Assembly (NCBI GenBank): GCA_902761275.1
Contig: CACWJS010000001.1
Location: 11,477 to 75,476, forward strand
Source: an uncultured bacterium
GTDB taxonomy: Bacteria > Verrucomicrobiota > Kiritimatiellia > RFP12 > UBA1067
Reading direction: 5' to 3'
DNA: 64,000 nucleotides
The notes beneath the pieces were generated by a model, which was not told where the DNA came from, ran no database searches, and worked only from the letters and a program-made list of their open reading frames with translations. A program made the translations under genes and the position numbers. The stretch's first letter is position 1. Every line of letters starts with the position of its first letter. Below, in pieces: positions 3,385 through 55,572 of this stretch.

Positions 3385-3777
3385 TTAAGAAAACCAATTC
3401 TCGATTTTAAGTCCATCAAAGCGGGCAAAGTGTCCGGTGTTGCCAGTCGCCAATGTCGCGTCAAGCGTCAATGCCGTCGCCGCGATTATGACATCCGCGT
3501 CGTCAACCCGCCGTCCCTGACGCTCTAACGACGCCTTGAGATCGCCGAATTTCCGCATGATTTCATCAGTGGTATGATAGACAACCAGACTTTTCAGCAG
3601 CTTGTTGGTGGCAACGAGGTTCTCTTCCCTGAAATAAGATTTCTCGACGCCGTAGTAAAGCTCTCCTTCTACCATGGCAGGAATCCCGATCACTTCGTTC
3701 GCCACTTGCACATGTCCGAGCACCTTGGGATTGGCGTGCAATATCCCTATGCAGATGTTCGTATCAAGCAATATCAT
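3385..3777 (-). CDS. vapC: PIN-domain toxin VapC
   Basis: MILLDTNICI (Asp in first strand), 130 aa, PIN acidic residues; 4-nt overlap with upstream antitoxin gene. Confidence 0.8.
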   Translation of the reverse strand: MILLDTNICIGILHANPKVLGHVQVANEVIGIPAMVEGELYYGVEKSYFREENLVATNKLLKSLVVYHTTDEIMRKFGDLKASLERQGRRVDDADVIIAATALTLDATLATGNTGHFARFDGLKIENWFS

Positions 3778-43048: not shown

Positions 43049-43120
43049 CGGTGGCCATGTCCGCCGCCGACAAAACAGCCCCTCAGCAGAACAAGCGAAA
43101 AAAGGTCGTCGGACAAAGTA

Positions 43121-43197
43121 AATGCAATTACAACCATTTCCCGCCGACAACCCAACCACAATGCAATTACAACCATTTCCCGCCGACAACCCAACCA
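43121..43197. repeat. 38-bp tandem direct repeat x2 (AATGCAATTACAACCATTTCCCGCCGACAACCCAACCAC) with decaying CA-rich copies downstream
   Basis: Two exact copies, then degenerate CCGACAACAACCAAACCAC-type remnants to ~43380. Confidence 0.7.
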
Positions 43198-43420
43198 CGC
43201 CCCAACCGTCCTTGTCCTGTCCGCCATTCATCCATCCGTACAACCACGACTCAACCACCCTTCGTGTCGAATCCAATAACGATTCCGACACAACCATCCT
43301 CAATCCACGATTCCCCAAACCCGACAACAACCAAACCACTTCTCAACCACAACCCGCAAAGCGAAATAGGCGCAGTGGCGTCTGTTCATTCATGCATCAT
43401 CTTTATGATTCGTTCAAGAG

Positions 43421-45328
43421 TTACTTCGTGGTATCCTTTCGTAAAACAGAACGCAACCAGTCAATTAACATCACACAAAAGCCTATAAGCGATCCGGCAT
43501 TAACTGTTCCGCTAATCCATTTATTTAAATTCTCGCATTTAAAGTTGGCGTAATACACAATGACAAAAAGTGCCAAAGAGAAGGCAATCTTCAAACAGAG
43601 TTTAACAATCTTTAATATCTTTGACCTTTTCTTCTCGCGCAATCTTTCTTTTTGCTGCAACACGAGCAACTCATTTTGTTGTTTTGTTATTATCTCATCT
43701 TTTTCTTTTATCTCTTCTGTCTTTTCAGCTATAATCTTTTGATTTTCGGCCTGAATTGCCTGAACAAATTTCTCATGTTCTAAACGATACTGTCTATTCG
43801 ACTGTATTTCGACCTCTAGACGACCAATGGTTTCAGCCGAGAAATCAAGAGCTTCTTCGCAATTATCATTCTGTATCTCTTCAGGTAGCAATGGTTTTTC
43901 GCTCAAAGCTAGGATACGTGCACCCAACTGTTCTTGATTGATCTCCCCCTTTTTATACTTGAGCATACTATCTTGGTAAATGTCACTTACTTTTTGTGCG
44001 ACAATCTTCGAAATAACGATTCGCGCTTTTAGCAAAACCTCCGCATTAACAGGAAACTTATCACCACCAAAACCTCCATCAAGTTTGTACCACAACAAGT
44101 TTACAATATGGTTTAATGACATCGCATATCGTGCACAACTATTCGCCGGACGCGTCTTTTTATCATTCGCATATTGAGTATCGGAGGCACCAAGGACATT
44201 CCCAGAGTCACTTACAATTAGATACCTTGAGTCCAATTCAAATCCGGCGACTCGTCCACGACGCAACTTATTTACACGACTAATCGCCTCCCAGCCTTCT
44301 ATATCTCGTTCACTGCAGCAACCGGATGGCATTAAATCGTATTTTTTTAAATCTTCTGAATCATAATCGTATTTCTCGTCTTCGCACACTCCAAGCGACC
44401 TTAACTTGGCAAACAAGTCCGCCATCTTGATTCGCACGTCTGAAGACGTTCGGCTCCCATTTACAATCTGTTTCATCGCCGGTTTCTCCACATAAGCCAG
44501 CGAACGTCCCTCAACAATCATTTCGGCACTTTTGAAAAATCGCTCTATCTCAGATTTCACTTCAGAAAAATATCTCAAAGCAATCTTCCCCTTGCGATTT
44601 CCATCCTTTACCAATTGGTAAAAATCTTCTGCAAGTTCTTTATACACACTGCCATTATACCCGGTCAAGTCAAACAATATCTCTGTGTCCAGATACAATG
44701 TTAGTGAATGTTTCAAGCCTCCCCATTCGCTGATGTTACGATTTATGCCAAGGTAAAGAATCCCGCCTTCGCGAACCGAATCCAAAAAAGCCTGCAATTC
44801 TTTATCATCCTCATTTTCAACAATAAATGCACTAATTGTTTCGCTGTATTCAGTGCTGCCAACACCATCAACAAGATATGACACAATGGCCCTTACCACT
44901 CGTTTTCTATCAGCATCCGGATGCTCTTTGCGGATGCAATCAAATATTTTGTCTGCAATTTCGTCATATTTCGTCTCTTTGTTATTCTTCACTTCAACAA
45001 ATTGACCGTCGTCATTGCATAGCGAATCATCAACTTGGTAAGCATTGTTGACTCTGTTGATAAAACCTAACGTTTTCAAAGCAGTTTTTATGACCGCTTC
45101 AGGTATTTTGAATCCAAAATGGCTTTGCAATCTATCTCTCATCTCGGGAAGTGTGAAAGTATGTAAATGCTCATCATAGACGATGTACCCAATAAAATTT
45201 GACAGCAATTGATAAGGGCTTTTATATTTCCCCGAATCGTTCAATGCTTTCAACAACGCAAAAGACGCAATCGCTGTGATTGGCGCCTTTTCAGATTTAA
45301 TCCCATCCAATGCCATATATTTTTCCAT
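43421..45328 (-). CDS. Orphan AT-rich island protein: large soluble N-domain, C-terminal coiled coil, two TM helices (candidate defence/abortive-infection effector)
   Basis: 635 aa, visibly lower GC than neighbours; coiled coil KEKDEIITKQQNELLVLQQKERLREKK; TM helices ILKIVKLCLKIAFSLALFVIVYY and VNAGSLIGFCVMLIDWL; AAAGGAG SD. Confidence 0.6.
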   Translation of the reverse strand: MEKYMALDGIKSEKAPITAIASFALLKALNDSGKYKSPYQLLSNFIGYIVYDEHLHTFTLPEMRDRLQSHFGFKIPEAVIKTALKTLGFINRVNNAYQVDDSLCNDDGQFVEVKNNKETKYDEIADKIFDCIRKEHPDADRKRVVRAIVSYLVDGVGSTEYSETISAFIVENEDDKELQAFLDSVREGGILYLGINRNISEWGGLKHSLTLYLDTEILFDLTGYNGSVYKELAEDFYQLVKDGNRKGKIALRYFSEVKSEIERFFKSAEMIVEGRSLAYVEKPAMKQIVNGSRTSSDVRIKMADLFAKLRSLGVCEDEKYDYDSEDLKKYDLMPSGCCSERDIEGWEAISRVNKLRRGRVAGFELDSRYLIVSDSGNVLGASDTQYANDKKTRPANSCARYAMSLNHIVNLLWYKLDGGFGGDKFPVNAEVLLKARIVISKIVAQKVSDIYQDSMLKYKKGEINQEQLGARILALSEKPLLPEEIQNDNCEEALDFSAETIGRLEVEIQSNRQYRLEHEKFVQAIQAENQKIIAEKTEEIKEKDEIITKQQNELLVLQQKERLREKKRSKILKIVKLCLKIAFSLALFVIVYYANFKCENLNKWISGTVNAGSLIGFCVMLIDWLRSVLRKDTTK

Positions 45329-45430
45329 GTTTTGTGTCTCCTTTCTCTTTCAAAGCTTACGTAGTTTAATCTGCTAATACCGATCTCATAAATAAGTAAT
45401 ACCGATGATATATTCCCGCTAATATCCCCT

Positions 45431-45883
45431 CTACCACAACCCGTTGTCCCAGATCTGCTTGAGGATGAAATCGCAGTCGAGGGTCTTGTTGGTGATAGAC
45501 GACTTCTCGTGCTGCGCCTGGACATCTGCGGCCGTCTGGCGCGGGAGAAACTCGTCGCGGAAATACACCCATCCTGGCCTTAGCTCTGAGAGAAGATTTG
45601 TTATCGCCGGCTCGCTCGACGCATCCATCGCGCCGATCAGTCGCGTCACGGAGTTTGAAATGGCTGGAATGTCCGAGAACAACACGTCGTATGACACCAC
45701 GAGATGTGCGCCGACGAGGTCATTGGAATTCGCCGCAAGTCGCGTCTGTGCAAGTTCCAGGACATTCGTCCACTTGCCGACGTACCAGTCATTCGTTACC
45801 GCCGCAAAGGTATTCTCAGTGGGAACGGCGCGTGCCGAAAGCGCCAAGGCCAATGCCATTGCCGCAGTTGCCAATGTCTTCAT
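45431..45883 (-). CDS. Small secreted protein (hypothetical), downstream partner of giant paralog A
   Basis: Signal peptide MKTLATAAMALALALSARA; 150 aa. Confidence 0.5.
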   Translation of the reverse strand: MKTLATAAMALALALSARAVPTENTFAAVTNDWYVGKWTNVLELAQTRLAANSNDLVGAHLVVSYDVLFSDIPAISNSVTRLIGAMDASSEPAITNLLSELRPGWVYFRDEFLPRQTAADVQAQHEKSSITNKTLDCDFILKQIWDNGLW

Positions 45884-45914
45884 GATTTTTCCTTTCTGTT
45901 TACGTTATTTGTTC

Positions 45915-48653
45915 TCACCGTATCCTTCCCTCCACCACACCCGGCGAACAGAAGTTGTAGTTGAAGTCGAAGCTTGATGAAAAAACAGCGTGATTGTCGG
46001 TTGGCACGTGGTTCGGCCATAGCCGCCTAACCTTGACGTCCGCATAATCCCACATGTTGGTGGAAAGCGTGGTTGCCGCCGTCACCACTCCAGTGCCGGA
46101 AGCGACAGCCGTCCCTGCGTCCCAACTCATAGACGCCGTTTCGTCGTTGAAGGTGCCAATACCCTGTGCGAGCCACTGCGACACACCCCAAACGCCAAGG
46201 AACTCCGTTCCGTATCCAGCGAGAAAATTGCCAAGCTTCGCCATCCGCATGGGCACTCCGTAGAAAGACGCAACAGCCCCCATCCCTCTGATATCATCAA
46301 CCTGATTGTAGAACCACACGGTCGGACGCGAGACGTTGTCGACTCGTCCGAGATAATCGACAGCACCACCGTTCTTAAACCATCTCTTCCCAAAGCTTGG
46401 CGTCTGCCTTTCAAATCTGCCCGTTCGCGCGTTGAGATTCGACATCGCGGCGGCGTAAAGGGCAAAATCGGCCTCGAACACTCCGCTGACCTCCGCGCCC
46501 GAGAGCGGCAGCACGACGGTCGCGTAGGTATTTGACGAACCGGCGGCCTCGGCCTTGAAGCGGTAGACGCCACCCAGCTTCGGGTTTACGAACCGCGCCG
46601 ACAGACTACCCGAGCCCACTAGCGCACCGCTCATTTGCGGCGTTGCCTCCACTATGCTCCACGACGCTGACAGGCCACTCGTTGAGACACCCGCCGGCTC
46701 AAGCTCGAGAGCCATGTCAATATGGAAGTCCGCGATGCTGAATCCGTTTGTGCCAAGTGTCGCCACATTCTCAAACGGAACCACGAGATGCTTGTCGGGC
46801 GACGGGCTGTTTGTCACCGCGAATGGATAGTCCACTCCAGTCAGGAACGGCGGGGGATTCGTGCTCACGCCGGCGACAGCCGAGCTGACGTTCATCTGCT
46901 TGACACGCGCAACCGTCATGGATCGCATGACGGTACGTGCATCATCGCCCTGCAATGCAAGTTCGCATTCAAACACCACATCGCCGACACTCTCGCTTAG
47001 CTCCTCGCCCTCGACAAAGATTGTCGTGCCGCTCTGAATCGCCGCGCTCCATGCCATCGGCAGCGTCACTGAATGCGTCTTGTTGGTGTCCGCCCAAAGC
47101 GCGACCTTCCCAGATCCCGCCGTGCAACGCAGCGTCACGGTGCCTGATGGCTCTCCGCAGGGGCTATAGCCAACCGACAGGACGCCCATGTCGCCGTGAA
47201 GCATAACCACTGGCGAGACAGACATCCCAAGCCACGCCTCGGGATGCTCCTTGTTATATTCCTGGCATTCACAGCCCTGCTCCCACAGGAAACTCTGCGT
47301 GTATCCCTCCCATGTCGCCGCCGCGTCAAGACCGACATGCGAGAACCCGCCACACGAGCAATTCGGGTCGCACGTCCAGGTCAGCGACACGCCGTCAAAC
47401 ACCGCCTGGCAGCATCCGCCGGTGAAGCACGAAATTGACGCACCTACGTATGGCAAAGTATAAAGGACAAGGTTTGGCGCAGTTCCTGTGAAGCCAAGCT
47501 CAACCTGCCTCTGCACATAGAAATCTGAGCCCTGCGCGGCACCGCCCCTCCTAAGAGGCATCGACGTCGTTATCTCCGCAGCTGCGTCGCTCGTCGCCAC
47601 GTCAGACAGCGGACCATTTGCCGCCACGTGGTAGCGTGGCCCCATCAGAAGCGGGACCCGACATACCTGATTTGAGTTCGCGATCACCACCATGTCCCCG
47701 AGATTGCTCTCGCCCTCGCAGTCTATCGTAACGCGCGTGGCGTCGGATAGCGCCGAAAACTCAAGCCAATAGTACGCGGCCGCGCACACATTTGTGTGCC
47801 ATGCCACGACGGGCTCGCCGTTGATGCCGGCACTTGCCGACAGCACCGCGCCGCAGTTTGCGTTCAGCCAATCCGCCCCAGTCCCGAAACAGTCGCCGCC
47901 ATATACGGTCGGCTCAGGGTCTATGGTGTTGTCAAGACCATCGCCATCCCAGTCGTTAGGGTCGATCCTCCTGTAGACATTCGCGGCATCGTTCAACCAC
48001 GTCTCAAAGTCGCCGCCACGACGAAGCACAATCTGCAGGTTCACGCTGTCGTTGGTGTCGGCATTTGGAAAGACGTTCTCCCATCCGACAATCCGCTCGT
48101 CGCCATCTCCTGGAGCCCACCAGATGCGGCTCTCCCCCTGTACTGCGACGACGTTGCTCGCACCAGACGATATCTCGCCCGAAGGGTTGCGCGGGCTCAT
48201 CCTGATTCGGCCGTCGTGGAACCACCAGATCGACGAATACGAAGTGTCGTTCGACCCGAACGGAAACGACCATTCCCCGAAGTCGAGCCGATTGCGGCCA
48301 AAGCCCGACGCCGCTCCGCGCATATGCGCGTTGCCGAGATAGACGGCATTGGTCGGCATAGCGAAGGAATGCCCCGCGTCATTGGTCACATACCCAAGCC
48401 GGTAGCCACGCGCGATCTCCTCCTGCGTCACCATCGCGGGAAGCCCCACAAGCTGACGCATCAGTGCCCTCGTCGTAGAGTTCGTCTTGTCCGCCTCGAC
48501 CGCCGCGATGATGGCAAACGACAAGAAAAGGACCAGCAATTCCCTCGGCAGACTCTTTAGCCGTTCAAATCCACAGACCAGTGGCTTCAGCAAAAGCATG
48601 CCGCAGAAAACCACTGCGGCGCATATCCCGACAACATTCCAGTCGATGCGCAT
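45915..48653 (-). CDS. Giant secreted Cys-rich protein, paralog A (TSP3-like DxDxDG Ca-binding motif)
   Basis: 912 aa; N-terminal hydrophobic anchor; DPNDWDGDGLDNTIDPEP; Cys module CFTGGCCQAV...CDPNCSCGG; shares sequence along most of its length with 50258-52930. Confidence 0.6.
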   Translation of the reverse strand: MRIDWNVVGICAAVVFCGMLLLKPLVCGFERLKSLPRELLVLFLSFAIIAAVEADKTNSTTRALMRQLVGLPAMVTQEEIARGYRLGYVTNDAGHSFAMPTNAVYLGNAHMRGAASGFGRNRLDFGEWSFPFGSNDTSYSSIWWFHDGRIRMSPRNPSGEISSGASNVVAVQGESRIWWAPGDGDERIVGWENVFPNADTNDSVNLQIVLRRGGDFETWLNDAANVYRRIDPNDWDGDGLDNTIDPEPTVYGGDCFGTGADWLNANCGAVLSASAGINGEPVVAWHTNVCAAAYYWLEFSALSDATRVTIDCEGESNLGDMVVIANSNQVCRVPLLMGPRYHVAANGPLSDVATSDAAAEITTSMPLRRGGAAQGSDFYVQRQVELGFTGTAPNLVLYTLPYVGASISCFTGGCCQAVFDGVSLTWTCDPNCSCGGFSHVGLDAAATWEGYTQSFLWEQGCECQEYNKEHPEAWLGMSVSPVVMLHGDMGVLSVGYSPCGEPSGTVTLRCTAGSGKVALWADTNKTHSVTLPMAWSAAIQSGTTIFVEGEELSESVGDVVFECELALQGDDARTVMRSMTVARVKQMNVSSAVAGVSTNPPPFLTGVDYPFAVTNSPSPDKHLVVPFENVATLGTNGFSIADFHIDMALELEPAGVSTSGLSASWSIVEATPQMSGALVGSGSLSARFVNPKLGGVYRFKAEAAGSSNTYATVVLPLSGAEVSGVFEADFALYAAAMSNLNARTGRFERQTPSFGKRWFKNGGAVDYLGRVDNVSRPTVWFYNQVDDIRGMGAVASFYGVPMRMAKLGNFLAGYGTEFLGVWGVSQWLAQGIGTFNDETASMSWDAGTAVASGTGVVTAATTLSTNMWDYADVKVRRLWPNHVPTDNHAVFSSSFDFNYNFCSPGVVEGRIR

Positions 48654-48666
48654 GTTGCCCTCCGCA

Positions 48667-49161
48667 CTATCTGATGGTTATGTCAAACCGCTTGTTTAGA
48701 ACCGTCTCTACAATCGTCTCTCCGACTGTCCCCGCGCCTCGCTTCACGACTTTGGCCATGTTCCATGCTGGGTCGAAGCTGCGCCAACCGACGACAACCG
48801 TTTCGCCGACAGTGTCGTCCACTGTGCCGGAAACGTAGTCCACAAGATACCGCTCCCCGCAATCGCAGCCGAAAACGAATGCCGTCTCTTCAAACGAAAG
48901 ATCGCCGTTCCCGTCGGCATCGCAGCCAATTGCGACAAGCACCTCGTTTGAGACACAGTTCCCCGCGTCCAGAGTCAGACCGAATTCCCGCACTCTCTCG
49001 GCCTTGACGTGCAGCGGGAGATTTGTCGACACCTCTGTATTCGGCATAACGCCGTCAGGAAGCTGCGGCAGCGGATATTCCGCAGCCGCGCAGACCGTCG
49101 GCGCAAGGTGCGCGGCGACGGCAAAAAGCGTCGTCAAAAGAATCTTCTTCATCCCCTGCAC
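48667..49161 (-). CDS. Small secreted Cys-containing protein (hypothetical), driven by repeat-borne promoter
   Basis: Signal peptide MKKILLTTLFAVAAHLAPTVCAAAEY; 164 aa. Confidence 0.55.
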   Translation of the reverse strand: MQGMKKILLTTLFAVAAHLAPTVCAAAEYPLPQLPDGVMPNTEVSTNLPLHVKAERVREFGLTLDAGNCVSNEVLVAIGCDADGNGDLSFEETAFVFGCDCGERYLVDYVSGTVDDTVGETVVVGWRSFDPAWNMAKVVKRGAGTVGETIVETVLNKRFDITIR

Positions 49162-49287
49162 ACTCCTTTCTCCTGAGAAGGCGCCGACAGTATACCATCA
49201 AAGAGGGGATGTCAACTTATCGTAAACTTTTCGTTTGCGGGAAAAACGACGCAGGAGTTATCGTCTGCGATAACTTCATGGCACACG
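49120..49287 (-). promoter_or_regulatory. Promoter/5'-UTR/signal-peptide-start cassette, direct-repeat copy 1
   Basis: Minus strand: TTGACA ...(15) TATACT, ~36-nt leader with AAGGAG, ATG; ~85% identical to 55379-55541. Confidence 0.65.
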
Positions 49288-49431
49288 GCGAGGCAAGGCG
49301 CCTCTTAAATTAGGAGATATGCGGAGCGCGGCAAATCCACCGCGCAAGTCTGAAGCAACTTGCAAGCTGGTTCTTTCATAATGGTTTGACGGCGGCTGTC
49401 CCTCCCACCTCATTGCACCCTGTCCCAATCA

Positions 49432-50256
49432 TCATTTGAATTCATCCAGCCACTTGGGGATGTAGCCGGTGGTGTTTTCAAGATACTGAGCAAGAGTCCG
49501 CACGCCGCGAATGACGTTCTCCCGCGTTGAATAGCCGCGTTCGTAAAGGAGCATCTGCCCCTTCAAGTCTGCATTCATGTACCGCCGCGTCAACCCATTC
49601 TCGGACTCAATCTGATTAATTATCATTTCCTCGAGCTCCTTGGCGACCAATGCGAAATCCTCGCGTCCCTCGTCTGTAAACTTCCGGATGCATTTCCTTA
49701 TCATGGCCAACGCATCTGCCTCAAAATATGCCCCTTGCCTCGGAACCAATACTGCGGAGCGCTCAATATCGCCCAAGAGATTCATTCCCTCAATGCAATC
49801 GATAACGCATGCCTTAAACTCTTCCGGTGTTGCATACGAGCGCGACAAAATCCCGCCCTTAAACTCGCGGCTAATGGCGCCAGCGCAAGGTCTTACTATG
49901 TCGTAATAGTGTCCGGCGGATATACCCTTCATCCTCTCCGAAACGGTCGCGACGCAATCCTTCATGCCCCGAACATTCCCATTCAGAAGGTTTGTCGCGG
50001 CAGCCGTCCATACTGATTCCAATTGCGCACGTTCTGCATCGCTCACCCATTCAGGATGATAACGCAAGAGATCGCCGGGTGGGCAATCTTCGTCGATGCT
50101 GTTGTTTATCCATTCTTTCAACGGCGCTGCCGCATCTGGTGTCGATGTCTCATTAGAAGCCGACTTAACATGCTTCGGCATGAGAATACGACGAACGATG
50201 AATATGCCGCATGCAGCAACGATCAGCAATGTCAGTGTCAATAATGTCTTTTTCAT
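49432..50256 (-). CDS. Membrane-anchored/lipoprotein-like hypothetical protein
   Basis: MKKTLLTLTLLIVAACGIFIV N-terminal anchor; 274 aa; immediately downstream of paralog B. Confidence 0.5.
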   Translation of the reverse strand: MKKTLLTLTLLIVAACGIFIVRRILMPKHVKSASNETSTPDAAAPLKEWINNSIDEDCPPGDLLRYHPEWVSDAERAQLESVWTAAATNLLNGNVRGMKDCVATVSERMKGISAGHYYDIVRPCAGAISREFKGGILSRSYATPEEFKACVIDCIEGMNLLGDIERSAVLVPRQGAYFEADALAMIRKCIRKFTDEGREDFALVAKELEEMIINQIESENGLTRRYMNADLKGQMLLYERGYSTRENVIRGVRTLAQYLENTTGYIPKWLDEFK

Positions 50257-50257
50257 G

Positions 50258-52930
50258 TCAATGCACCCATTGAATGGTTTTGCCGTCTACTATAATCCGG
50301 CAGAATCGACCGCGCGACATGGTATGCCCGTGTTTCTCGATCGATGCCGTTCCATCGTCGGAAATGGAAAAAATTTGCTGATATGCGTCTTGTTTCCCGC
50401 CTATCAACAAGATTCGTGATAAATTGTCATTGTCAGCATTGATCTCATGCTCTGCCTCACGAACCCCGTGCCTGTCGTCGCCGTCAAACCGCATTCTGAC
50501 CCACCCTATGGGGATGTCCCAAACGAGACGTCCAGCGGACCAATTCTCATATTCCAAGGGATGTCCGGCTCTATCAACTGTCCAATAGTTATTTGTCGCT
50601 ATTCGAGTCGCCATGCCCCAACCGTAGTCAAATATACGCCAGTGCGTCCATTGCCCAGTGTAGTTTGTCGTTGCAAAATAACCAGATGGCATATTGGTGT
50701 GAGTGCATGGGATCTCGGACACCATGATTCCGTGGAACGACACGTTCATCGGGCCGACATAGTTCGTAATCGCAAGCAAAGTTCCCCCGACTGATCCCGG
50801 AGAACGACAAGGCGCATAGTATGAATCCCAGAAAGCATTTGGGCTTATTATTTCCTTCGGCTCGACAATTGTCATCTCAGGCCTATACTCAGCCTCGCGG
50901 CACACGACTTTCAGATTTGGCGTCACCGAGTAGATTGGGCACGCATATATTTTCCCCGCAGAATCTATGATATTGTCATAATGATACAGCTCGTTTGTAT
51001 CAATGCGCGTCAGCTGAACACTTGTCGCCACACTTTCGGGGAAACTGCGAAACTGAACCCGTTCCCCTACGCCATAGACATGGCGGTTGGTGCATGGGTT
51101 TTCGGGTGCTTCCCAGACCGCGGCGAGTTCCACGCGAACAGACGTGGCATGGCAGTCGTTTGTAATCGACTCTCCAGTGACATTGTCGGTCAGCGTAGCG
51201 ATAACCTCGATGTCGTCAGCCGTATCGCTCGCCGACAGCCCCACGTAGTTCATTGCATACGTTATCGACTGCCTTGCCGGAACAGACACCGACTGCGAGG
51301 GGAAGGCAGGACCCGAGTTCTTCTGTAACTTGCCAAGGTTCGTCGCGGACACGGACAGCACGGCGCCATTAGTTCCGCCGTTGGCACTGATAGTCAGCAT
51401 CGTCGCCGTCGAGCGCCGCGAAACCCACTCGCCAGGCGAGTTTTCGTATCCATCCTCGAATATGACCGCATCCTTGCTGAAATTGGCAGAGACAGATGCC
51501 GCATACGGAGCGGCCGATGGTGTCGGCGTTGGGTCTGGCGCATCTTCCCAGCATCCACACGAGGCATAACCAATGAACAACTTGGAATACCCTTCCCACA
51601 GCGCAGTCGTTTCAAAACTATGATACACTCCTCCGCAAGTACACGTCAAGGAACACGACCACTGCAATATACCGTCAACAACCTCCCGCGAGCAACACCC
51701 TCCGAGACAGGCGATAATCGAGGGGCGTACATTAATCGGCGAAGATGCCGCGCCATAGTTGCCTGTAGACCCTGCGCTTCTCGTCTGTATTCGCACCAGG
51801 GAAAGTTCCAAAGGCAAAGAAACGGTCAGGCGATTCTCGGCGTTCGTCACGATCTCCGCGTATTCGCTCGACACGGCAGAGTAGTCAATCGGCAAGTCGC
51901 TTTCGACTGTGTATGTCGCGCCAGCGAGAAGCGGGACGTGGCAGACTTGGTTTGTCCGCGCAATGATCACATGGTCGCCAAGGTCGCTCGCTCCATCGCA
52001 AGTGACGCGGATCGTCGCAACTCCGAGAACCCCTGTCACCGAAAGATCAAGCAAGTAGTAGGCATCGGGGTTCGCGTTTGGCGGCAAGGCATTTGCCACG
52101 CCAAAGAAATCTCCGTCGCAGCTTGTAGGATTCGCATCTCGCTCGTTATGGATTCCGTCATCATCCCAATCGTCGGGGTTGACGCGGCGGCAGACTGTCT
52201 CGACCTCGTTCGAACGCGTTACGAAGTCGCCGTTGGGAGAAAGGACGATCTGCGCATTTACGGGGCTGTTCGTGTCGCCGTCGAGGAAGAAGTTTTCCCA
52301 TGTTAGAACGCGGCTGCCATCATCGCCATCAAGCTGCCAGAACTGGCTTTGGCCTGGAACAGCAAACATCGGGACGCCGACAGCGCAGATTTCGTGCGCA
52401 GCATCTCGCGGAGTTGGGCGAATGCGACCATCGATGAAATACCAAAACGATGAAAACGCCTCGTCGTTCGTGCCGAGCGGGAATGCCCAATCGCCAAAAT
52501 CAATCCTGTTGTTTCCAAACGACGATGTCGCGCCGTGGATGTGCCAGTTCCCGACAAGCGCTGCGTTCGTCGGCATCGCATACGAAACCGCCGCGTTAGT
52601 CGTGACGCTCTCCACTCGCCAACCGCGAGAAATGTCATCAATAGTCGCCTGGACAGGATTCACAAGGTTTATAAGATTACCAATCCCTAACAATCCTGTC
52701 AATCCTGTCTGAAAAGAAGGCCCCTGCATCATCTGCGGCTGATTCATATTCGGCGGCACATTGTTCGTCTTCTGCGCATCGAGCGACGTGCCGACGGCGA
52801 GAAGCGAAAGCGCGAGGAGTAGCGAAGCCGACAGTCTGCGAAGTGCACGAACATTGATACGAACAAGGAACGCGAATATGCAGACGCACTCGGCAACGAC
52901 AAAGCAACTCCCAAGGAAATGCCAGTTCAT
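50258..52930 (-). CDS. Giant secreted Cys-rich protein, paralog B
   Basis: 890 aa; NPDDWDDDGIHNERDANP; Cys module CLGGCCSREV...CSLTCTCGG; collinear with paralog A. Confidence 0.6.
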   Translation of the reverse strand: MNWHFLGSCFVVAECVCIFAFLVRINVRALRRLSASLLLALSLLAVGTSLDAQKTNNVPPNMNQPQMMQGPSFQTGLTGLLGIGNLINLVNPVQATIDDISRGWRVESVTTNAAVSYAMPTNAALVGNWHIHGATSSFGNNRIDFGDWAFPLGTNDEAFSSFWYFIDGRIRPTPRDAAHEICAVGVPMFAVPGQSQFWQLDGDDGSRVLTWENFFLDGDTNSPVNAQIVLSPNGDFVTRSNEVETVCRRVNPDDWDDDGIHNERDANPTSCDGDFFGVANALPPNANPDAYYLLDLSVTGVLGVATIRVTCDGASDLGDHVIIARTNQVCHVPLLAGATYTVESDLPIDYSAVSSEYAEIVTNAENRLTVSLPLELSLVRIQTRSAGSTGNYGAASSPINVRPSIIACLGGCCSREVVDGILQWSCSLTCTCGGVYHSFETTALWEGYSKLFIGYASCGCWEDAPDPTPTPSAAPYAASVSANFSKDAVIFEDGYENSPGEWVSRRSTATMLTISANGGTNGAVLSVSATNLGKLQKNSGPAFPSQSVSVPARQSITYAMNYVGLSASDTADDIEVIATLTDNVTGESITNDCHATSVRVELAAVWEAPENPCTNRHVYGVGERVQFRSFPESVATSVQLTRIDTNELYHYDNIIDSAGKIYACPIYSVTPNLKVVCREAEYRPEMTIVEPKEIISPNAFWDSYYAPCRSPGSVGGTLLAITNYVGPMNVSFHGIMVSEIPCTHTNMPSGYFATTNYTGQWTHWRIFDYGWGMATRIATNNYWTVDRAGHPLEYENWSAGRLVWDIPIGWVRMRFDGDDRHGVREAEHEINADNDNLSRILLIGGKQDAYQQIFSISDDGTASIEKHGHTMSRGRFCRIIVDGKTIQWVH

Positions 52931-53028: not shown

Positions 53029-55257
53029 TCATAAAGCAACATGCCACCCACTAATGTCATCATAGAGTTCTTGCAATGATCTTATTGACATGTCCACCAA
53101 CGGTTCGTACATAAATGAATTCAAATGTATTTGCTCAGGCGTCATTAAAGAAACCTTATTCAAAATAGTGCGTTCTGCTTCCGTGCCAAGATTCTGCGAG
53201 CGAAACGACTTAAACAACTTCCCAAATCGACTCCGGCCACTTACACGAGGCTGGCCCCTCTCTATTAGCATTGCTTCCATAAAGGACTCTGCCATTAAGC
53301 GTATAGTCATTGCAAGAACTACCTTGTTCTCAAGTTTGATTTCGTCAAGCTGCCCTTGTCCCAGCTCTTCTGATATTCGCCTAGCCTCGGCGAACAATAT
53401 GTCAACCCACGGCATATCCATATTCGGCCAAAACAGGTCTATATTCGAAATCCGCGGCAATGTTTTGAGATAAACATTTTTGACTTCACTTGCAAGCACT
53501 GACCTTGTAATCCGCAGCATGGGGTCTTCATGCTTGATGTCATGCAAGCATGATGTTAGAAGCAAATAATCTGAGGAACTATCGCCTTGGATATACTCTA
53601 TTAGATTACGGACAAATGGCAGCATAGCCAACAATATTCTATTAGTGGGGTTCGCAATCCAAGTTTGGAGAAGATTTCTTAAGAAGTGCCCTCCCGACAG
53701 TTTTATCTCCCTGGTTAATGGATCCTTTGTAGCCATAAATACATTCTGCGCTCTTTTCAAGCCTAGCCGGGAACATACTGTCCTGTAAAAATCTAGATTG
53801 TGAGTTAATATAATCGTACGAACCATGGAGTTCATACTTAAGTCCTGAATATATTCAATAATGGCATATTTGTTTTTATAGTCAAATGAATCAGCCACAT
53901 CATCAAAGATTAAAAGCAATGGACTCGTTTTGCGCACTTCAATTTCAAACAGAATCTGCAACAAACAAAACGCCCTACGCTCCCCCTTGCTTAACACGTC
54001 GCCCAATAAAGCGTCCGAAGTGCGCTCGACAGGGACTGCATTATTAGAATCATCGCAGTAATAAAACTTCAGCTTGGCATCTTCATGATTAACAAGAACA
54101 TTCTGCTGATTCTCAATCTCAACTTTAAATGGAGCATGAAATCTGTCATTAAATAAATCAATGATGTGTCTCCATATGGCCTGCTCTTGTCCCGCGCGAT
54201 TTAGAATATTCCGGAGCGTAGACTTTCTTTGTCTGTACAAATCAATCAATTGTCGATATGATTCTGCGACCCTTCGCAAATAAGAATACCAAACCTTCTT
54301 GCGAAAAGCATCATAATCCAAAAGATCAACAAGGTACTCGTTGTGTGCGAATATTGCCGCCTTAAAAGCCCTTAATTCCTTATTTTTCCCAATAGCGCCA
54401 TCAATCTTATCAAAGACTCTCCTAACAGCGGGCTCGTTGACCACTCGCGCTAATTCTCCATCGTATTTACTCTTGAACTCTTCGTATGTATTTAGATTAA
54501 CGCCACTATCTAATGTAATTTTATGTCCAACCTTGAAAAAAGAATTATCCTTTAAACTCTTCGAAATTGCATCTGCCTGCTCCGTACCAAATACAACATT
54601 GCCGACGACCTTAAAGAAATCCGACTGAGTCAAAACATTATTGTACTCCCTAAAATACTCCTCTATGCTCTGCCGATGTTTTTGAAGGAACTCACGGACT
54701 TTACCGCCTCTATCAAAAATATCGTTATACTTAAAAGAGTATTCGGGGGGAGCAACGTCGTCAATTCCATCAAATATGCGCTCTAAAATCTCTAAATCTG
54801 TCTCTTGACTATTAACAGCAAATGCCTCTCTCAATTCAACACTACAGTCAGAACTTTGCGAAACAGTTTTTAACTCGCCAAAAAATCGATCTAGCGCAGC
54901 ACTCAATTCTTGATATACAGCATCATATTCACGCTTCAATTCTTCGCTGGCAAGAAATGCGGAAACACTCTTTTCAGCAGAAACAAAATTCTCCGGGTCA
55001 ACAACATATACACTTTCAGGGGCAAGAGCCGCACCATTCCCTTCACGAAAAATTGCCACGCTTTCCCTATCCGGATAAACCAAATCGCCAGGAGCAAGCC
55101 CACGAGCATATGCCTGGAACGTCTTGGTTAATGATGTTTTCATTGTCCCGTTAGGCGCATAGACAACAGAATATGGGCAATCCGACGTAAACTCAAACTC
55201 ATGTTCAAGTTTGCCAATCCCATAACAGTTTTCTATTTGCATTTTTATTTTCGACAT
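53029..55257 (-). CDS. AT-rich island ATPase: split ABC/SMC-type (AAA_15/AAA_21-like) N-domain with degenerate Walker A plus ~260-aa unassigned C-terminal domain (candidate single-gene defence system)
   Basis: N-term KMQIENCYGIGKLEHEFEF...VVYAPNGTMKTSL (Walker A with Gly to Met); Walker B-like LLLIFDDVADSFD; H-loop-like TIILTHNLDF; long helical insert between; low-GC codon usage. Confidence 0.6.
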   Translation of the reverse strand: MSKIKMQIENCYGIGKLEHEFEFTSDCPYSVVYAPNGTMKTSLTKTFQAYARGLAPGDLVYPDRESVAIFREGNGAALAPESVYVVDPENFVSAEKSVSAFLASEELKREYDAVYQELSAALDRFFGELKTVSQSSDCSVELREAFAVNSQETDLEILERIFDGIDDVAPPEYSFKYNDIFDRGGKVREFLQKHRQSIEEYFREYNNVLTQSDFFKVVGNVVFGTEQADAISKSLKDNSFFKVGHKITLDSGVNLNTYEEFKSKYDGELARVVNEPAVRRVFDKIDGAIGKNKELRAFKAAIFAHNEYLVDLLDYDAFRKKVWYSYLRRVAESYRQLIDLYRQRKSTLRNILNRAGQEQAIWRHIIDLFNDRFHAPFKVEIENQQNVLVNHEDAKLKFYYCDDSNNAVPVERTSDALLGDVLSKGERRAFCLLQILFEIEVRKTSPLLLIFDDVADSFDYKNKYAIIEYIQDLSMNSMVRTIILTHNLDFYRTVCSRLGLKRAQNVFMATKDPLTREIKLSGGHFLRNLLQTWIANPTNRILLAMLPFVRNLIEYIQGDSSSDYLLLTSCLHDIKHEDPMLRITRSVLASEVKNVYLKTLPRISNIDLFWPNMDMPWVDILFAEARRISEELGQGQLDEIKLENKVVLAMTIRLMAESFMEAMLIERGQPRVSGRSRFGKLFKSFRSQNLGTEAERTILNKVSLMTPEQIHLNSFMYEPLVDMSIRSLQELYDDISGWHVAL

Positions 55258-55293: not shown

Positions 55294-55410
55294 TTATGGA
55301 ACACATTGCCATTGTTGAAGCCCAACGCCTCGCGACAATTCAAGGAGACATTCGCAATTATTATATTTTGTTGTCGTCGGCAAAAGCGTCGTCAAAAGCA
55401 TCTTATTCAT
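55294..55410 (-). pseudogene. Remnant 38-codon ORF carrying the first ~9 codons of the 48667-49161 paralog (MNKMLLTTL...)
   Basis: Sits in direct-repeat copy 2; homology to MKKILLTTLFAVAA stops after ~9 aa; followed by the AT-rich ATPase gene. Confidence 0.35.
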
Positions 55411-55541
55411 CCCCTGCACACTCCTTTCCTGAGAAGTCGCTGACAGTATACCATCAACGAGGGGATGTCAACTTATCGTTAGCTTTTCTGTTACGAGAAA
55501 AACGACTCAGAAGTTATCGAATAAGATAACTCCGTGGCATA
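55379..55541 (-). promoter_or_regulatory. Promoter/5'-UTR cassette, direct-repeat copy 2
   Basis: Same TTGACA/TATACT promoter and leader as copy 1; now upstream of remnant ORF plus ATPase gene. Confidence 0.65.
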
Positions 55542-55572
55542 TAACGGCGGCGATAACTTGCCAAGTCACCAA

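Follow-up and report, generated by a model that had tools for sequence, protein, structure and literature searches.

The stretch of DNA analysed here, called the window throughout, comprises 64,000 nucleotides of the genome of an uncultured bacterium of the Kiritimatiellia (assembly GCA_902761275.1, contig CACWJS010000001.1, positions 11,477 to 75,476 of the forward strand), and our subject is one of its genes, gene X, which encodes a protein of 635 amino acids (AA). We found that gene X was acquired horizontally and varies between strains, and a role in defence is probable. Its standing as a one-gene defence candidate, as proposed in a preliminary description of this DNA, is supported by association: the gene has a foreign base composition at third codon positions (GC3), it is exchanged with PDC-S06-type and caspase-like cargo at one chromosomal slot, relatives lie next to restriction-modification (R-M) genes, and no partner gene accompanies it. 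The reading that we prefer, in which the product is a membrane-tethered nuclease acting against phages or plasmids, stands in its whole chain at about even chances, and the assignment of the effector function to a PIN-like domain within the protein is made tentatively.

The gene has a GC content of 0.396 and a GC3 of 0.395, in a window with an overall GC of 0.58. GC3 values amount to 0.68-0.75 in the TonB-type receptor gene on one side and in the genes for the 150-, 912- and 164-AA proteins on the other, and to 0.78-0.84 in housekeeping genes farther away. Only one other gene in the window, encoding a 742-AA protein at 53029-55257, shares the low-GC composition (GC3 0.404). The preliminary description had called gene X AT-rich and preceded by its own AAAGGAG Shine-Dalgarno (SD) sequence, and both observations were borne out; the deviation, once quantified (0.395 vs. 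0.68-0.84), is that of a foreign codon composition and contradicts native codon usage. The absence of a P-loop noted there was likewise confirmed, as no Walker A motif was found in the 635-AA protein. Promoter and terminator scans gave nothing above shuffled expectation.

Presence or absence of the gene among related strains was determined on contigs encoding a 150-AA protein identical to the one encoded at 45431-45883 of the window, 10 of which were informative. Directly downstream of this identical gene, four cargo types were found at one and the same junction. Gene X occupies the slot in half of the contigs (L083, L084, L086, L088 and L091), whereas the others hold different cargo: a cassette that includes two Peptidase_C14 (caspase-like) genes in L082 and L090, the start of an ATPase gene matching the PADLOC system PDC-S06 (E 5e-61) in L087 and L089, and an unrelated gene for a 333-AA protein in L085. 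The caspase-like cassette shows a weak match to the PADLOC 'caspase' model. All the alternative cargos are of low GC (0.42-0.49 vs. 0.58-0.60 in their own flanks). Sequence clusters of the encoded proteins differ in size as well, with 22 members for the 635-AA protein, 163 for the 912-AA protein, 380 for the 150-AA protein and 253 for the neighbouring pyridoxal kinase. The polymorphism looked for is thus present, and syntenic conservation of the gene across the clade is contradicted by the four cargo types.

In strains with other cargo, homology to the window ends at 45404-45413, approximately 20 nt past the stop codon of the 150-AA gene, and in L085 it restarts at ~43345. From these breakpoints we placed the exchanged cassette at ~43357-45410, with gene X as its one gene (Table 1). 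The slot is bordered on both sides by copies of an imperfect direct repeat, GGGTTGTGGT(A/T)GAG, identical at 14 of 15 positions, and the right-hand copy, TTGTGGTTGAG, is found also at the boundary in L085 (~3471-3481), next to a different cargo. The repeat is suggestive of a recombination site, although the statistical case is weak, with about 0.2 such repeats expected by chance in 2.7 kb according to our estimate. No tRNA, tmRNA or Rfam element was detected near the slot, which itself holds no element genes, and within the window no integrase, transposase or replication gene accompanies gene X. As for the other occupants, the cargo of L082 (7546-14453) and L090 extends over at least 7 kb with a GC of ~0.47, its two Peptidase_C14 genes being interleaved with unannotated genes for 290-, 476-, 461- and 407-AA products. 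The 333-AA gene of L085 (2200-3201, GC 0.44) has no Pfam or PADLOC match and is, by its position, a further defence candidate.

The DNA downstream of the gene shows two further features. A tandem repeat of 38 bp had been described as flanking the gene; a tandem repeat is indeed present, but it is a perfect duplication of 39 bp, located 220 nt past the stop codon, and not a feature of the cassette. We considered it as an attachment site or cassette end and rejected this, given that the unit is single-copy both in L083 (99.7% identical, with the gene) and in L085 (without the gene), that the surrounding DNA is shared with this gene-less strain, and that the window holds no further copy. The duplication arose by slippage in this strain alone and has no evident relevance. 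Several metagenomic contigs (L001, L002, L086 and L088) end or switch flank in the C/A-rich intergenic region at 43170-43300, L001 (94% identical) diverging at ~43240, which points to further rearrangement or to repeats that break assemblies.

The preliminary description had regarded the protein as an orphan, which was not borne out. A word-indexed search recovered 126 relatives of ~620-680 AA, none with a Pfam domain, and a profile search (HMM) of 1.84 billion cluster representatives, each standing for a cluster at 50% identity, gave 709 matches at E≤1e-30, 1076 at E≤1e-10 and 1860 at E≤1e-3. Among the best 150 matches listed, most are 600-710 AA long and align to the profile from end to end. 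A scan of one genome per species placed relatives in Clostridia, Lachnospiraceae, Selenomonas, Streptococcus oralis and its relatives, Spirochaetota, Bacteroidota, a metagenome-assembled genome of Chloroflexi, and Tenericutes, with identities not exceeding 41% throughout. Relatives are carried also by IncF conjugative plasmids of Citrobacter, by plasmids of Pantoea and Duffyella, and by 4 of 5426 complete E. coli genomes, in which ssrA lies on one side of the gene and the tail-fibre end of a lambdoid prophage on the other; the E. coli homologue (WP_136676584.1, strain MS21324) can be aligned from end to end (27% identity, E 7e-53). The hydrophobic hairpin is kept in the E. coli, Citrobacter and Pantoea proteins. 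A typical phage gene was considered and rejected, since a phage collection yielded one weak match of 22% identity. Relatives are annotated everywhere as 'hypothetical protein', a per-member Pfam scan of 44 of them returned weak coiled-coil and transmembrane (TM) look-alikes only, and a literature search by accession and architecture terms found no description of the family. Neither Pfam and NCBIfam nor structure comparison revealed homology to an envelope-biogenesis protein. The family is therefore widespread and matched no named family in the libraries and literature searched.

To describe the architecture we used an AlphaFold2 model based on a 44-sequence alignment (pLDDT 84 and pTM 0.73 at full length; pLDDT 86.6 and pTM 0.85 for residues 105-495 alone). 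In the model, an unbroken helix spans residues 498-597 and is followed by a second helix to residue 634. TM segments were called from hydropathy only, which gave hydrophobic segments at ~574-597 and ~604-626, separated by a short polar loop and both flanked by Lys/Arg-rich stretches. This agrees with the charged coiled coil followed by two hydrophobic helices that had been described before. Two hydrophobic segments are found in 90 of 113 full-length family members and at least one in the other 23; one member has an extra segment elsewhere. Because of the basic flanks, the short loop and the lack of a signal peptide, both ends of the hairpin are predicted to be cytoplasmic. The stalk in front of it varies from 48 to 101 residues (median 80), whereas the order of winged helix, helical linker, PIN-like domain, helical domain, stalk and hairpin is constant in the family. 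Conservation is concentrated in the soluble head, where columns carry 2.2-2.6 bits and 103 of them are highly conserved. It is lowest in the stalk (1.80 bits) and the hairpin (1.65 bits), neither of which has a highly conserved column. Such a pattern fits better with a spacer and an anchor than with a sequence-specific pore, though pores may also diverge fast. Foldseek, proposed in the preliminary description for the N-terminal 480 AA, gave nothing at E≤0.001 when the full model was compared with the PDB, indicating that no multi-domain relative has been solved in structure. Matches from a profile search against PDB sequences (Piezo, 5-HT receptor) consisted of low-complexity, charged-helix and TM similarities only and were rejected as spurious.

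The part of the head that suggests a function comprises residues 203-400, which are predicted to form a three-layer alpha/beta/alpha fold with a parallel sheet and the strand order of VapC. In PIN domains the active site is built after strands 1, 3 and 4 and in the helix after strand 2; the canonical form has four acidic residues (D...E...D...D/E) at strand ends, which bind metal. Across the 113 full-length members, E216 is present in 100%, E or D at position 260 in 96%, D297 in 99%, D317 in 98% and T at position 373 in 93%. E216, D317 and T373 directly follow strands 1, 3 and 4 of the model, and E260 lies in the helix after strand 2. VapC proteins carry the motifs D-T-N and T-x-D, and in the corresponding positions the family has (D/G)-T-E and V-T-(N/E/D). 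N353 is also among the conserved residues of the PIN-like domain, and N225, R356, W413, P426 and several glycines are invariant. The statement in the preliminary description that the protein has no recognisable catalytic motif thus holds for the sequence but not for the fold, in which residues ~203-400 are PIN-like and carry invariant or nearly invariant acidic residues.

Genomic neighbourhoods of the relatives link the family to defence loci. In the closest clade (52-54% identity), all four recovered contexts are 3' ends of R-M or defence operons: HsdR-HsdM-Fic-Fic-HsdS-TIR-[X]-DUF6161, a 1350-AA ResIII/Eco57I enzyme (type IIG) followed by DUF4062-[X], which was found twice, and HsdM-Schlafen/AlbA-HsdS-HsdR-[X]. 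In three of these four (L003 9234-9953, L008 7120-8199 and L095 6370-7458), the gene just before the homologue encodes a TIR or DUF4062 (TIR-like) protein, and the two genes could be functionally paired in this clade; the window copy has no such neighbour. Among more distant members, some are located downstream of HsdM or HsdS with gaps of ~10-15 nt and others near HsdR and Fic, or after a small HTH gene on an element with integrase, Mob_Pre and NikA. When 525 neighbour proteins from 60 dereplicated loci were clustered all against all, the largest clusters in raw counts were HsdR (13 loci) and HsdM/HsdS (12 loci), which share the strand of the family gene without exception and nearly always precede it; Fic (6 loci) came next. 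No universal or conserved partner gene was found in this clustering. Pfam analysis of the two nearest upstream genes placed Methylase_S, ResIII, Eco57I and N6_Mtase on top, and detected also AccI and NgoMIV restriction enzymes, integrases, Mob_Pre and TraO/TraQ. Such surroundings are typical of a gene that needs no partner and moves with defence islands and mobile elements.

According to the reading that we prefer, the hairpin and stalk would tether an oligomeric head to the inner membrane, where the winged helix may bind nucleic acid and the PIN-like domain would act as effector nuclease, either cleaving invading nucleic acid at or near the membrane or, once triggered, host or phage RNA. A nuclease tethered in this way would back up the R-M systems that are often co-encoded with the family. 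On a wider view, which we consider possible but rather doubtful, the family would represent a new broad class of one-gene immunity, in which a membrane-held winged-helix/PIN-like nuclease destroys or senses incoming phage or plasmid nucleic acid at entry, is often wired behind R-M operons as a second layer, and has converged with the SNIPE system from unrelated parts.

Several observations weigh against a tethered nuclease in defence. The canonical Asp after strand 1 (position 214) is D in 47% and G in 45% of members, and position 374 after strand 4 is N in 51%, E in 27% and D in 13%, and so acidic in only 40%. For these reasons the active site has to be regarded as non-canonical, although catalytic competence is plausible as judged from the model. 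Alternatively, the domain could lack catalytic activity, like the PIN-like modules of Nmd4, SMG5 and Utp23, which were among the hits. No Pfam PIN match was obtained for the 635-AA protein or any of the 44 members scanned, and none in NCBIfam. Searches of Pfam, NCBIfam, PHROGs and PADLOC with the 635-AA protein gave sub-threshold noise only; PADLOC-DB v2.0.0 assigned it to 0 families, and 10 diverse relatives, the E. coli protein included, gave one sub-threshold HamA match and nothing else, so that the PADLOC check suggested in the preliminary description matched no system component. Besides, no R-M system adjoins the gene in the window, and an association with R-M neighbourhoods is equally expected for any cargo of mobile elements.

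The foremost alternative, which we regard as unlikely, is an abortive-infection membrane effector, in which the N-terminal ~495 residues serve as a sensor only. Once a phage is detected, the coiled coil would drive oligomerisation and the hairpins would open a pore or lesion, so that the membrane is depolarised and the cell dies before the phage can mature. Small TM modules are effectors in CBASS, Pycsar and retron systems, and the family-wide two-helix hairpin at the C-terminus, following a long helix, speaks for this mechanism; the defence-island and mobile-element context is the same, and the half of the members that lack the canonical first PIN Asp is compatible with a non-catalytic sensor. 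Against this, the stalk and hairpin are the least conserved parts of the protein (1.65-1.80 bits vs. 2.2-2.6 in the head), and four invariant or nearly invariant acidic residues, three right after PIN strands 1, 3 and 4 and one in the helix after strand 2, are hard to explain for a pure sensor. Pfam scans found no SAVED, CARF, cNMP-binding or other known signal-binding domain, and no PADLOC effector model matches. The depolarising C-terminal module favoured in the preliminary description is not supported in particular, the highly conserved columns being located in the soluble head (103), which contains the PIN-like fold, and not in the hairpin and stalk.

A guard function like that of PrrC, though attractive for the operonic copies, appears improbable. 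Here, a latent PIN-type RNase would be held by a type I or IIG R-M complex and freed by a phage anti-restriction protein, shutting down translation. VapC-type PIN domains cleave tRNA or rRNA, PrrC and RloC are a precedent for suicide nucleases linked to R-M systems, type I R-M is the most frequent neighbour family, and at many loci the gene directly follows hsdS, hsdM or hsdR on the same strand with gaps of 10-40 nt. Yet type I R-M genes occur within ~6 kb in only ~20% of the 60 dereplicated loci, the copies in the window, on plasmids and at the edge of the E. coli prophage occur by themselves, no ABC-ATPase, anticodon-nuclease domain or Walker A motif was found, and the membrane anchor has no role in such a model. 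Least probable of all is a cargo with a non-immune role, such as a module for addiction or maintenance or a regulator at the membrane that serves the carrier element, which would ride along in variable islands and give no protection from phages. In its favour, relatives are found next to recombinases and are carried by IncF conjugative plasmids and an integrative mobilisable element, the winged helix could belong to a transcription factor and no defence database match was obtained, but it is at odds with the repeated operonic placement behind R-M genes in unrelated phyla, with the allelic exchange with PDC-S06 and caspase-like cassettes at a chromosomal slot devoid of element genes, and with the lack of any integrase, transposase or replication gene beside the window copy.

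If the family does give protection from phages or plasmids, it would add a widely distributed single-gene system, with at least 700 clusters at 50% identity, in gut Firmicutes, oral streptococci, Bacteroidota, Spirochaetota, Kiritimatiellae, enterobacterial plasmids and at the edge of an E. coli prophage. It might then also explain a recurrent unannotated gene that ends type I R-M operons. The E. coli homologue makes the family directly testable. The slot is of interest in its own right, as a precisely bounded site at which unrelated low-GC defence candidates, the 333-AA gene included, replace each other, and so as a place for mining in Kiritimatiellae.

Table 1. Positions in the window of gene X, the domains of its product, the cassette and its junctions
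Feature	Position	Strand	Basis or remark
Gene X (635 AA), sole cargo gene of the cassette	43421..45328	-	open reading frame call, GC3, 98%-identical copies in related strains
Shine-Dalgarno sequence AAAGGAG	45338..45344	-	9 nt 5' of ATG (45326-45328); read from sequence
Winged-helix domain, residues 16-100	45029..45283	-	predicted model
Helical linker domain, residues 105-200, ending in invariant G188-x3-Y192-x-G194	44729..45016	-	models, conservation
PIN-like alpha/beta domain, residues 203-400	44129..44722	-	predicted strands 209-213, 249-253, 314-316, 369-372
Conserved helical domain, residues 405-495	43844..44116	-	invariant W413 and P426; models, conservation
Coiled-coil stalk, residues 498-570, charged single long helix	43619..43837	-	length variable in the family
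C-terminal membrane hairpin, residues 571-627: two hydrophobic helices, short loop, basic flanks	43448..43618	-	hydropathy, family-wide
Low-GC cassette, ~2.05 kb, exchanged between strains	43357..45410		homology breakpoints
Left junction, conserved: end of native 150-AA gene and ~20 nt common to four cargo types	45411..45443		alignment
Direct-repeat copy 1, within left junction	45429..45443		overlaps stop codon of 150-AA gene
Direct-repeat copy 2, right boundary	43342..43356		14/15 identical to 45429-45443
Tandem duplication, 39-bp x 2.0, perfect	43121..43198		Tandem Repeats Finder; native intergenic DNA, outside the cassette

Other genes of the window were inspected as well. HisRS proteins 99% identical to that of the window are named as Kiritimatiellae, in line with a host from this group. 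The low-GC gene at 53029-55257 (minus strand) codes for an AAA_13 ATPase of 742 AA with a nearly end-to-end match to the PADLOC candidate system PDC-S46 (E 1.6e-219), and consequently the window carries two separate low-GC insertions of defence type. A segment of ~140 bp is duplicated at ~49162-49300 and 55375-55546 and includes a strong TTGACA-17-TATACT promoter, an SD site and a start codon. One copy lies 5' of the 164-AA gene and the other 5' of the PDC-S46 islet, where only a remnant of ~21 codons of a 164-AA-like gene precedes the low-GC DNA; this ~140-bp copy and gene remnant suggest that the PDC-S46 cassette replaced part of a paralogous operon. The native genes near the slot, at 45431-49161 (164, 912 and 150 AA) and 49432-52930 (274 and 890 AA), all on the minus strand, have no Pfam domain, and the 150- and 164-AA products start with what resembles a signal peptide. 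These genes have the look of paralogous operons in tandem, encoding secreted proteins specific to Kiritimatiellae.

Compared with known systems, the core of the protein is in the predicted model structurally nearest to the VapC PIN toxins, at ~9% sequence identity. It departs from VapC in its large helical insertions, in the non-conserved first Asp and in matching no PIN model; an antitoxin is not encoded separately, and the PIN-like domain forms one polypeptide with a winged helix, a stalk and a membrane anchor. Like PrrC and RloC, the family is repeatedly encoded within hsd operons or at their end and could plausibly serve as a second line of defence, but it has no ABC-ATPase head, no anticodon-nuclease domain and no AAA_13 or PrrC match, and most members, the window copy included, do not lie beside R-M genes. 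The two-TM effectors of CBASS, Pycsar and retron systems resemble it in carrying a small hydrophobic hairpin on a larger cytoplasmic domain and in their defence-island context; those effectors respond to a nucleotide signal from a partner enzyme, whereas here no partner gene and no signal-binding domain were found, and the hairpin is the least conserved part.

The closest functional analogue of the family would be SNIPE (PD-lambda-1), a one-gene nuclease anchored in the inner membrane that combines a DNA-binding DUF4041 with a GIY-YIG domain and cuts phage DNA during injection (10.1101/2025.11.03.685801). The arrangement of gene X's product is reversed and its domains are unrelated: SNIPE consists of a single N-terminal TM helix, DUF4041 and a C-terminal GIY-YIG domain, whereas the 635-AA protein begins with a winged helix and continues through the PIN-like domain and coiled coil to a C-terminal two-helix hairpin, and neither DUF4041 and GIY-YIG (Pfam) nor PD-Lambda-1 (PADLOC) matched it. 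The membrane-tethered PIN-like head as a layout likewise matched nothing in the libraries or literature searched. Like SNIPE, the family is encoded by a single gene carried on mobile elements and in variable islands. The membrane tether of SNIPE has been proposed to keep the nuclease off the chromosome, and the system is a precedent for a membrane-bound nuclease being a complete one-gene defence (10.1101/2025.11.03.685801). If our reading holds, the family of gene X would stand beside SNIPE as a second, independent example of this strategy.

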